DNA of 64,000 nt from Octopus vulgaris (lineage: Eukaryota): positions 168,640,001 to 168,704,000 of the forward strand of contig OX597814.1 in the NCBI GenBank assembly GCA_951406725.2, given 5' to 3'. Within the stretch, counting starts at the first letter, position 1. Each line of letters begins with the position of its first letter. Shown here one piece after another: positions 4,527 to 33,318 of this stretch. Below the pieces are notes generated by a model, which was not told where the DNA came from, did not search any database, and worked only from the letters and a program-made list of their open reading frames with translations. Made by a program: the position numbers and the translations under genes.

Positions 4527-5043
4527 TAAAAAATAAATAAATGCGCCCTTTTAAAGCCTAGCCAGGCTCATGGGCCCGGTTTCCCGGTTTCTATGGCGTA
4601 TGTGTTCCCCAGCTGGACGGGATGCCAGTCCATCGCAGTGTTACTCATTTTTGCCTGCTGAGTGAACTGGAGCAACGTGAAATGAAGTGTTTTGCTCAAG
4701 AACACAACGCGTCACCCGGTCCAGGAATCGAAACCACAATCTTACGATCATGATGCTGACACCTTAACCACTAAGCCACGCGCCTCTACAAAAAATGTTC
4801 CTTCTCTAGCCATGCCATGCTCATAAGGGACGGTTTCCCGGTTTCAGTGGCGTAGAAATTCCCCACCTGGACGGGATGCCGGTCCGTCGCAGGATTACTC
4901 ATTTTTGCCAGCTGAGTGAACTGGAGCAACGTGAAATGAAGTGTTTTGCTCAAGAACACAACACATCGCCCGGTCCAGGAATCGAAACCACAACCTTACG
5001 ATCATGAGTTCAACACCCTAACCACTAAGCCACGCGCCTCCAC
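4527..5043 (-). mobile_element. Two tandem tRNA-derived SINEs (family D head, CORE-like centre) inside one TSD
   Basis: Two ~255-bp units, each with minus-strand A box GTGGCTTAGTGGTTA and B box GGTTTCGATTCC. TAATGGATCACA occurs at 4515-4526 and 5044-5055. Confidence 0.85.
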
Positions 5044-9895: not shown

Positions 9896-10422
9896 TATTG
9901 GAAAAAGACATCCGGTATAGAGGAATTTAAATCGTGAATAGCGAACTAGCTGTGAAAAAATGAAAAAGGGGAAGTGAAAAATAATAAAAATAAATAAAAG
10001 AACCGCTTGTACTCGTGAAAGGTCAACCACTGTTTTGTGAGAGTATGCGAGTAATGCGACAATATAACGCTTACAATACAAGTTAGATATACATTGTCAA
10101 ACAGATTTTGTGCCCATACTGGAAAAGACATGTATAGGCAGACATATATATATATATATATATAAGCTTCGAATGTCTCGTCCGTGTTTTTTCTATCGTC
10201 TTCTAAATGTTTTACGTTCTTGTCCCAGTTTGTATTTTTCTACATATAATATATATATAATATAAGGGATATTAGCCAACTGAATATGGCTAGGGACAGG
10301 GCAGGGTGGTGGGGGTGTCACTGTTGCATTTAGCCCCAGGCGAACATCAACGTCACCAGATAGGCCGACGCCATCACGGCGTCCTCTATCTTGCAAAGGG
10401 AGATCATTCACCAAGAAGCGGA

Positions 10423-10476
10423 TACCACACACGGACCTAGGTTTCAAGGTGTATTGCCTATTATCAACGTGTGGTA
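10423..10476 (-). ncRNA. Type I hammerhead ribozyme, U3-A8 core variant (copy 1)
   Basis: Minus strand TACCACACG-TTGATAA-T AGG caataca CCT T-GAAA-CCTAGG-TC-CGTGTGTGGTA. Palindromic stem III, GUC cut between 10434 and 10433. Confidence 0.75.
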
Positions 10477-10777
10477 GGCATCGCTTCTCGATGAACGACC
10501 AACCGTGCAAGATACATATAAATATTTTCAAGTAAATACATTTACTGATTTCGAAAATCTGTTCGACAGCAATAATAATTCTCTAAATGAGATATAGACA
10601 GTGACTGCTCCATAATATAAGGGATATTAGCCAACTGAATATGGCTAGGGACAGGGCAGGGTGGTGGGGGTGTCACTGTTGCATTTAGCCCCAGGCGAAC
10701 ATCAACGTCACCAGATAGGCCGACGCCATCACGGCGTCCTCTATCTTGCAAAGGGAGATCATTCACCAAGAAGCGGA

Positions 10778-10831
10778 TACCACGCACGGACCTAGGTTTC
10801 AAGGTGTATTGCCTATTATCAACGTGTGGTA
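10778..10831 (-). ncRNA. Type I hammerhead ribozyme, U3-A8 core variant (copy 2)
   Basis: Same motif as copy 1, with stem I 3' strand CGTGCGTGGTA. Cut between 10789 and 10788. Confidence 0.75.
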
Positions 10832-10883
10832 GGCATCGCTTCTCGATGAACGACCAACCGTGCAAGATACATATAAAGATTTT

Positions 10884-10939
<56 letters not shown>

Positions 10940-26639: not shown

Positions 26640-27265
26640 GACCGTGCATCTGTTCTCTCCTCCTGAATCTGCCCTGCAGTCTCCCGTCTCCCTTTTCCCC
26701 TCACCTACCACCCACCAACCTACCTCTCCAACGCACCATTCTTCGAGCTGTCCGGCATCTCCAGTCCGACCCGTCCACTTCACACATCTTCCCTAACCGA
26801 CCCCTCTTCTCATTCAAACGAGCCCACAACCTACGAGACCTCTTGGTCCACAGCTTCTTCTCCAACCCAACCTCCCAACCTGGCTCGTTCCCCTGCCGCA
26901 CTTACCCTAACCCCTCCAACACCACTCTCCTCACCGGCACTCATCATCGACCCTATCACATTACCGACTCCTTCACCTGCACTTCTACCAATATCATCTA
27001 TTGCATCTCCTGTTGTCTCTGCCATTCTCTGTACATCGGACAACCGGGACGCCGCTTGGCTGACCGGTTCGCGGAACACCTCCGAGACATCCGCCTCGGC
27101 AATGACACCCCGGTCTCACGCCATTACCACTCTACCGGTCACTCTTTGCAACACCTGTCCGTGTTCGGATTGTCCTTGCAAAGAGGCCATCCGAACTCCC
27201 GTTTGCGCCGTGAACAGGGATTAATCTTCTCTCTTCGCTCTTTTGCGTCACATTGGCTCAAATTT
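26640..27265 (+). pseudogene. Penelope-like element GIY-YIG endonuclease fragment (Neptune-type)
   Basis: FKRAHNLRDLLVHS...FTCTSTNIIYCISCCLCHSLYIGQPGRRLADRFAEHLRDIR...PVSRH...RLRREQGLIFSL: NIIY/YIG motifs with CxxC and the catalytic Arg and Glu. Confidence 0.9.
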
Positions 27266-31973: not shown

Positions 31974-33318
31974 ATGTGTGTGTCGTGAGTTTGTGTAGTC
32001 AAATCGTAGGAGAATTGTTTGAGCCGTAAAAAGGGTGAGATGTGTGTGGTATGCTTGGGTATCGAAAAAAAAATATATATGTAACAAGTTTATTAATATC
32101 GTAACGTAGTAAGTTACATAGTTCGTCCCATATTGAAATCGAAAGGAATTTCGATAAACAGACGGTCACCATTGAAACAGACGTCAGCTCATCGAAATTT
32201 CTTTTGGTTTACAATATGGGACGAACTATGTAAACGATGTTAATAAACTCGTCTTATCGTATATTGTCTAACCCTTGTCATCTCTACTAGGCTGAATATA
32301 TAAATGCATACATGTGTGTGTCGTGAGTTTGTGTAGTGAAATCGTAGGAGAATTGTTTGAGCCGAAAAGGGTGAGATGTGTGTGTGGTATGCTTGGGTAT
32401 CGAAAACAATATATATATATGTAACAAGTTTATTAATATCGTAACGTAGTAAGTTACATAGTTCGTCCCATATTGAAATCGAAAAGAATTTCGATAAACA
32501 AACGGTCACCATTGAAACAGACGTCAGCTCATCGAAATTTCTTTTGATTTTCAATATGGGACGAACTATGTAAACGATGTTAATAAACTCGTCTTATCGA
32601 ATATTGTCTAACCTTTGTCATCTCTACTAGGCTGAATATATAAATGCATACATGTGTGTGTCGTGAGTTTGTGTAGTGAAATCGTAGGAGAATTGTTTGA
32701 GCCGAAAAGGGAGAGATGTGTGTGGGTATGCTTGGGTATCGAAGAAAATATATATGTAACAAGTTTACTAATATCGTAACGTAGTAAGTTGCATAGTTCG
32801 TCCCATATTGAAATCAGAAGGAATTTCGATAAACAGTCGGTCACCATACAACCGTCAGCTCATCGAAATTTCTTTTGATTTTCAATATGGAACGAACTAT
32901 GTAAACGATGTTAATAAACTCGTCTTATCGTATATTGTCTAACCCTTGTCATCTCTACTAGGCTGAATATATAAATGCATACATGTGTGTGTCGTGAGTT
33001 TGTGTAGTGAAATCGTAGGAGAATTGTTTGAGCCGTAAAAAGGGTGAGATGTGTGTGGTATGCTTGGGTATCGAAAAAAAAATATATATGTAACAAGTTT
33101 ATTAATATCGTAACATAGTAAGTTACACAGTTCGTCCCATATTAAAATCAGAAAGAATTTCGATAAACAGACGGTCACCATACAACCGTCAGCTCATCGA
33201 AATTTCTTTTGATTTTCAATATGGAACGAACTATGTAAACGATGTTAATAAACTCGTCTTATCGAATATCGTCTAACCTTTGTCATCTCTACTAGGCTGA
33301 ATATATAAATGCATACAT
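31974..33318. repeat. Tandem array of four 331-340-bp units, each with a long internal inverted repeat
   Basis: TCGTGAGTTTGTGTAG recurs at 31983, 32321, 32661 and 32992. Fold-back at 32087-32249 in unit 1. Confidence 0.95.

Follow-up and report, generated by a model that had tools for sequence, protein, structure and literature searches.

The stretch of DNA analysed here (the window) comprises 64,000 nucleotides of Octopus vulgaris contig OX597814.1, and holds on its minus strand, at 10257-10886, an insertion built on a repeat with a period of 355 nt. Two copies of 275 nt (10257-10531 and 10612-10886) differ by two mismatches (10429/10784 and 10523/10878), and with the 80 nt between them the insertion measures 630 nt, or 1.77 units. 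Thus, the two near-identical copies 355 nt apart that the first-pass annotation described are indeed present, and of its 355-nt tandem unit the period stands and a full double unit does not. Unit positions are counted from the first base past the predicted cut (position 1 = 10788). Read on the minus strand, the insertion starts with a ragged 5' end at about unit position 258, contains both predicted cut sites, stops at the short fixed 3' end (unit position 177), and is a single arm. The predicted 355-nt monomer lies between the two cleavage sites at 10434-10788 (minus strand). Also on the minus strand are a 44-nt 'tail' (10568-10611, unit positions 178-221), which spans the distance from the short to the long 3' end of genomic copies, and a conserved superfamily motif of 25 nt at 10671-10695, about 94 nt past the cut site, with a second copy at 10316-10340. 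The flanking sequence consists of an (AT)n target run at the 5' junction (10887-10916) and a short AT run at the 3' junction (10246-10256). No reverse transcriptase (RT) or endonuclease is joined to the unit, which has a GC content below 50%, no LTR, and a length that is not a multiple of 3.

Tail to tail with this insertion, the 3' piece of another abundant repeat lies at 10165-10250 (plus strand) and likewise ends in (AT)n. Its contig depth was very high in the sequencing runs examined, and longer copies contain a CUGANGA...GAAA...GUC-like motif by pattern.

Each window copy has on the minus strand the elements named in the first-pass annotation: UUGAUAA, an AGG/CCU stem II with a U·U at 10.1/11.1, GAAA, the palindromic stem III CCUAGG, and GUC, with predicted cuts after 10789 and after 10434. 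The upstream type I hammerhead occupies 10783-10828 (core 10822-10816) and the downstream one 10428-10473 (core 10467-10461), both on the minus strand. As in type I hammerheads, there are a Watson-Crick 3-8 pair, G5, A6, A9, G12, A13 and A14, an A15.1-U16.1 pair, H17, and three stems with stem I open. Stem II has 3 bp and is opened by the U·U. The downstream ribozyme has an intact 6-bp stem I, and a change at 10784, private to the window locus, produces an A·C mismatch in stem I of the upstream ribozyme. The hammerhead pattern occurs on one strand only of the unit. An Rfam search of the window region returned no hammerhead at the gathering score or at E<=10, as had been predicted for a variant core in standard searches; an Rfam match is not defining for such cores.

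The suggestion that this core variant was undescribed did not hold, as both U3-A8 and U10.1·U11.1 had been published (PMC3088659, PMC4209133, PMC7229834; here and below, statements on cited work refer to excerpts of the texts). Natural U3-A8 covariation and U10.1·U11.1 were reported in PMC3088659, such 3-8 pairs having earlier been shown to be active in vitro, and about 1,300 minimal U3-A8 hammerheads were tied to Schistosoma PLEs (Penelope-like elements) in PMC4209133. The axolotl retrozyme Amex2 contains the U·U, is weak as a monomer and efficient as a dimer, and is circular in vivo (PMC7229834). By its title, a study of PLE hammerhead variants that cleave as dimers (PMC5785218) may cover such core variants as well. 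The combination of U3-A8 and U·U within one core may make a slow ribozyme. The core variant alone is ordinary; yet searches for the canonical core undercount retrozymes.

Stem I is extended on the minus strand (10387-10514) by a 19-bp helix (10402-10420/10482-10500) and a perfect 9-bp helix (10387-10395/10506-10514); this extension has compensatory changes from one subfamily to another. The 19-bp helix includes four G·U pairs when read on the minus strand, and on the plus strand these four positions are mismatched, in agreement with the earlier description of wobbles working on one strand only. When folded as a circle, a check that the first-pass annotation had put forward, the minus-strand monomer reached -112.9 kcal/mol (z -5.0), and none of 100 dinucleotide shuffles was as low; the plus-strand circle was also lower than 100 of 100 shuffles, but with a z of only -2.6. 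The rod-like shape claimed for the unit is found in the ribozyme-adjacent half of the monomer, and the far half is multibranched. For stem III, ACCUAGGU, a duplex of two copies was computed at -11.4 kcal/mol, compared with 0.0 for the hairpin in a monomer.

The genome assembly searched has 2.8 Gb in 227 contigs. Relatives of the window unit gave 77 matches from the 40 scored of 1,505 candidates, and a 34-nt core was found in 121 exact copies genome-wide (control 0). A looser core pattern gave 443 matches (control 13). Among these are sister cores: some have U3·G8, some are further U3-A8 variants, and some belong to a canonical C3-G8 family that is homologous to the window unit along the unit. 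The 25-nt superfamily motif matched 5,615 times (control 0), and a general hammerhead core pattern 5,854 times (control 223). More than 20 large contigs carry dispersed copies, which stand in tandem arrays of up to about 9 units and fall into several non-coding subfamilies with units of 352-364 nt that spread on their own. As in non-LTR retrozymes, the tandem unit measures 150-450 nt, and two or more neighbouring units each bear a type I hammerhead. By its sequence, the window insertion can be assigned to a young subfamily (the 121 exact cores) in a superfamily of about 5,600 motif copies.

Several other repeats were noted. A sister subfamily of 360 nt, with the core CCGAUGA (U4C, C3-G8) and stem III CCAUGG, forms an array of about 9 units plus 3 inverted ones, with short and long ends, at L172:804-5209 (C1:31009303 onward). 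This subfamily is very young, is frequent among the core-pattern matches listed, and is likely the best one for bench tests. Further families of hammerhead-like repeats ending in (AT)n were found at L081-L086, L108, L110, L118, L124 and L136; these have U3-A8, U4C or an 8-nt palindromic stem III. In the window itself, a 340-nt unit occurs four times at 31974-33318; its copies are 94% alike and contain long inverted repeats. A pattern search found no hammerhead in this unit, a weak blank because the same pattern also misses the window's own U·U ribozyme. A repeat that we take to be SINE-like, with two copies 254 nt apart, lies at 4577-5040 and also flanks many of the loci examined.

Selection on the RNA was assessed in an alignment of 12 units (typically 75-97% identical, one at 56% to the window unit). 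Of 84 named pairs, 21 change on both sides, a number reached in none of 500 shuffles, with 3-7 for slid controls; the shuffle test is inflated by relatedness, and the structure was taken from the same alignment. These two-sided changes indicate that the fold is selected as RNA. Thus, copy number (121 exact cores and 5,615 motif matches, both with controls of 0) and covariation support the retrozyme identity, the strand and the predicted cut sites proposed in the first-pass annotation.

The 3-8 pair is U-A in six of the aligned units, U·G in three and C-G in three. A tree of 32 fragments built without the core requires at least seven changes of the 3-8 state, to which recombination between subfamilies could add, and in it a C3-G8 subfamily nests among U3·G8 subfamilies. 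C·A was seen at 3-8 in none of 50 distinct motif-linked ribozyme rows selected by a script that demanded a paired stem I, and in two single copies of an old canonical family (L079 and L080) that look decayed. The first-pass annotation had taken U3-A8 as one double substitution of C3-G8; since sister subfamilies have U3·G8 and C3-G8, the change is better read as steps via a wobble. Stem III palindromes occur in six spellings (CCTAGG, CTGCAG, CTCGAG, CTATAG, CCGG and CCATGG), with one-base breaks of the palindrome in 7 of the 50 rows. The core, stems I-III and the rod all remain paired through the seven or more core changes.

The most informative part of the analysis, absent from the first-pass annotation, is how the copies end. 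In a survey of best BLAST matches or first-listed pattern matches (not a random sample), 89 locus records were merged into 83 blocks with 128 outer ends; several long or diverged insertions (L173, L178, L065, L066) were split in the process, so that there are fewer insertions than the 83 blocks, and some blocks counted as 'single' are one half of an inverted pair. The outer 3' ends fell at unit positions 171-178 (57 ends) or 214-224 (56 ends), with 15 elsewhere, and the exact junctions are at 177 and 221, 44 nt apart. (AT)n adjoined 99 of the 113 fixed ends versus 2 of the 15 others, and target-site duplications of the retrozyme are unreadable within (AT)n. Among 45 head-to-head blocks, 38 combined a short with a long end, none had two short or two long ends, and 7 had an atypical end; the chance of the short-plus-long rule would be 0.5^38 if the ends were independent. 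The 5' ends were scattered over the unit in 72 arms of 40 insertions, with arm lengths of 32-1056 nt. Five of the 72 arms begin at unit positions 1-10 versus 2.0 expected (P=0.055), a possible trace of linear cleaved templates.

PLE insertions are known as partial tandems with an inverted 5'-truncated copy and a tail of 30-40 bp at one end (PMC8557442, PMC3846280), and a PLE protein was shown to cut both strands of AT-rich DNA and to start cDNA at two neighbouring internal sites, between which the tail lies (PMC11167929). The octopus copies stop at either of two fixed 3' ends that delimit a tail, are truncated at the 5' end and occur as head-to-head inverted arms, as expected of a PLE-mobilised family. 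Taken together, the two fixed ends, the (AT)n flanks and the short-plus-long rule can be recognised as the PLE 'tail' signature, and they appear to provide strong genomic evidence that PLEs mobilise this new non-LTR retrozyme. The rule, held in 38 of 38 cases, also bears on the unsettled PLE mechanism of two-strand priming by a dimer.

To what helper this footprint might belong was addressed by searches for GIY-YIG, which found a young PLE family with many intact 781-aa frames (RVT_1, CxxxxCxxC, with GIY-YIG at the C terminus). The Cys motif before the endonuclease fits the description of the Neptune type in PMC8557442, to which the family would belong. Its copies have two end points in (AT)n, separated by 38 nt (of 24 records, some of which overlap, 16 have the short end and 7 the long one, and 1 is unclear), and it carries the UUGAUAA (U3-A8) core with a CAUG palindrome in stem III. 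A second PLE family (785 aa, 74% identity to the first) has UUGAAAA with CCGG. Because stem I of both families is short and AT-rich, their ribozyme calls are weaker. Both Neptune-type families are young; beside their intact frames of 781 and 785 aa they have tails, hammerhead-like motifs of the U3-A8 kind and (AT)n as target, and they are represented at L217:1245-4665 and L236-L241. In the window, a decayed C-terminal PLE fragment with the GIY-YIG motif and 30% identity to the Neptune protein was noted at 26693-27094 (plus strand).

A homologous pLTR (pseudo-LTR) was sought with blastn and with a profile built from the 12 aligned units. Neither revealed one at the 3' ends of the 79 sampled loci with PLEs, which represent a small fraction of the PLEs in this genome; four matches were all judged by position or strand to be separate insertions or chance. 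Therefore, a helper can be named by analogy only, and by that analogy it would most likely be a Neptune-type PLE family of the same genome. Naiads may be an alternative, as (TA)n-targeting Naiads occur in Octopus spp. (PMC8557442). The helper tried at the start, a PLE family with a GIY-YIG fragment beside L090 (30 loci), was set aside as it is without the superfamily motif, and a 'CTC-loop-GAG' hairpin common to retrozyme and Neptune tails is too short to count. The window element itself was also considered as an autonomous PLE, and no RT plus GIY-YIG ORF between pLTRs was found; as a viroid-like replicon it was rejected because genomic DNA copies exist and the hammerhead is on one strand only.

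What RNA served as the template can be approached from the arms. Measured from the cut, the start sites are 177 and 221 nt downstream. Even so, 61 of the 72 arms cross the predicted cut site and 22 cross it twice (counts inflated by the choice of loci), which would make the template either a circle closed by religation or a multimer left uncleaved. In the 616 cells of diagnostic columns, copies of the same insertion agree in 607 and differ in 9, compared with about 227 differences expected from random copies. Of the within-insertion differences, 125 are private and 26 common to other insertions, many of them lying, by eye, at CpG-like sites. Eight variants are private to an insertion and yet present in all its copies, and five of the eight span both arms. 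In the L172 array, seven units differ from the first by 0, 0, 0, 0, 0, 2 and 0 bases. Since every copy is shortened at its ragged 5' end, length must be restored at some step. With a circle, both the uniformity of the units and the recovery of length are explained; uniform units would also be expected from a young multimer that was itself uniform.

Sequencing runs were inspected as well. In the run listing, 19 of 24 rows, from 6 studies and under organism labels A-D, contain part of the stretch, and none is on record as RNA. Among four runs guessed to be RNA, X2 and X3 each have a 390-nt contig, a 360-nt unit plus 30, which in our reading is the length expected from a closed path of 31-letter words. 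These contigs match the L172-type sister (C3-G8, U4C, stem III CCAUGG), and the U3-A8 subfamily of the window appears in the guessed-RNA runs in short pieces only. Such contigs cannot show ends, strand or circularity, and they were dropped as evidence of a circle because tandem DNA or read-through gives the same contig.

We consider it probable that the window element is a dispersed, non-coding, hammerhead-bearing tandem non-LTR retrozyme, whose 355-nt monomer is likely released, likely circularised and likely pasted into the genome by a PLE. In the mechanism that we propose, a multimeric transcript would cleave itself after GUC, two copies pairing to form stem III, and a host ligase such as RtcB would close the monomer, by analogy with PMC7229834. 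A PLE RT-endonuclease, most likely the Neptune-type one of the same genome, would then cut both strands of an (AT)n run, and cDNA would begin at unit position 177 for one of these strands and at 221 for the second. Each cDNA would travel round the circle through the religated site until drop-off, yielding 0.1 to 9 units, and the ragged 5' ends would be joined head to head, or one arm would be lost, as may have occurred in the window insertion.

The same PLE machinery could also copy an uncleaved linear multimer, with a weak ribozyme serving 5' processing or regulation and circles unneeded. We regard this as rather unlikely, though published work speaks for it: hammerhead cleavage was unnecessary for insertion by a reconstituted Anolis PLE in vitro, where hammerhead mutants were without effect (PMC11167929), many animal hammerheads have low activity (PMC4209133; bioRxiv 10.64898/2026.07.22.740005), and 8 of 9 predicted Xenopus retrozyme dimers showed no cleavage in vitro (bioRxiv 10.64898/2026.07.22.740005). 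Genomic arrays of up to about 9 units are possible sources of such a multimer. However, linear copying alone cannot keep arrays long when ragged 5' ends shorten the daughters (arms of 32-1056 nt), parent-like mixed patterns are rare within insertions (the 9 of 616 diagnostic cells), and a dispensable ribozyme is at odds with a core, stems and rod that stay paired over the core changes counted above.

It is improbable that the unit is the detached pLTR of an unsampled autonomous PLE and the copies its 5'-truncated debris. What lies upstream of each 3' end is another unit copy, up to 9 times, rather than RT or endonuclease; the Neptune protein matched by tblastn only 5 loci below L187, none joined to the unit; and the several non-coding subfamilies of 352-364 nt spread independently. 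The idea draws on the type I hammerheads and tails that occur in PLE pLTRs, on the relation of Xenopus retrozymes to pLTRs (bioRxiv 10.64898/2026.07.22.740005), and on the scoring of PLEs having covered the best 150 of thousands of candidates. That the repeat is a DNA satellite or minisatellite, made by unequal crossover and with a chance or dead hammerhead-like motif, is scarcely credible: the tandem layout and the missing Rfam match would suit it, and local tandem amplification has been discussed (bioRxiv 10.64898/2026.07.22.740005), but a satellite would not account for short arrays, scattered over more than 20 large contigs, that have fixed 3' ends, inverted arms and flanking (AT)n, or for strand-specific G·U pairs with compensatory changes.

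A further element was observed inside retrozyme relatives (L107-L136; for example, L061:1440-3100 and L110:1501-2853), and also in tandem arrays (L167-L171). It is 1.8 kb long and has one ORF of about 450 aa, an AATAAA end and no RT; 150 matches were scored of 13,152 candidates. The protein gave a weak zinc-knuckle match below the cut-off, and its Atlas neighbours are CCHC and ZCCHC3-like proteins. Of 30 loci, 21 could be oriented, and 19 of these have a duplication of at least 12 nt (range 12-23 nt), shuffles giving at most 11; a hammerhead-like core lies 25-40 nt past AATAAA in 16 of the 21. The duplicated targets differ between the host retrozyme families. This ORF1-only element is possibly a target-specific LINE derivative that parasitises several retrozyme families just 5' of the core, and presumably resembles the HAL1/Tx1-type target-specific elements. 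The element at L061 was also considered as a coding version of the retrozyme unit and was rejected, as its target-site duplications show a separate insertion.

Joining these parts, we tentatively offer a reading that we hold with less confidence than the retrozyme assignment itself: the copies may document, across the genome, how the Penelope reaction proceeds on an RNA circle. In it, one PLE dimer would prime both cut (AT)n strands at two fixed sites, 44 nt apart on a single hammerhead circle, and roll round that circle, from which the strict pairing of a short with a long end would follow; the core would walk between C-G, U·G and U-A and back without losing the pair; and an ORF1-only LINE, landing just 5' of the core in many different retrozyme families, would parasitise this one too.

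The window family shows every sequence-level feature of a non-LTR retrozyme, and it would work like a non-autonomous PLE. The mobilising enzyme of animal retrozymes and the circle as template were stated to be open in PMC7229834 and PMC7761336, the latter reporting no motif in metazoan retrozymes that points to their helper. Here, a non-coding retrozyme has a PLE-unique footprint with a defined target and exact starts (177 and 221), and its genome also contains candidate helpers that are intact; the question of the mobilising enzyme is therefore open to a direct test in vitro. A literature search found no account of the window family or of tail or short-plus-long signatures in retrozymes; Repbase, subscription journals or supplements may already list it as a non-autonomous Penelope.

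Like the metazoan non-LTR retrozymes of Acropora, Mytilus and axolotl (Amex2) in PMC7229834, the family has a non-coding tandem unit of about 350 nt with one type I hammerhead each, a weak palindromic stem III suited to a dimer, a self-paired fold, thousands of copies and PLEs in the genome, and it shares with Amex2 the U·U at the base of stem II. Unlike them, it has a U3-A8 core, and circles were shown for theirs and are predicted for the window family. Its mostly 1-3 units, fixed 3' ends, 44-nt tail, inverted arms and (AT)n flanks had no counterpart in term searches of the PMC7229834 text. U3-A8 in place of C3-G8 in a PLE-linked type I hammerhead is shared with the minimal hammerheads of the Schistosoma mansoni PLE Cercyon (PMC4209133); those are mostly single motifs with truncated PLEs, whereas the window family has a full stem III palindrome, a non-coding tandem unit and a long rod. 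With EN+ PLEs (the Neptune clade and Anolis Poseidon PAc; PMC11167929, PMC8557442, PMC3846280) the family has in common two 3' ends, a tail (30-40 nt in theirs), 5' truncation, head-to-head inverted copies, AT-rich or (TA)n targets, and a hammerhead upstream of the start sites; it differs in having no ORF, a tail of 44 nt, starts 177 and 221 nt past the cut, and no homology to the sampled autonomous families. The same conclusion, that PLEs mobilise animal retrozymes, was reached for vertebrates in bioRxiv 10.64898/2026.07.22.740005, where retrozymes were argued to be PLE derivatives. In the available part of that text, from which the term 'tail' is absent, the evidence is co-occurrence and Xenopus pLTR homology, whereas for the octopus family it is the insertion footprint.
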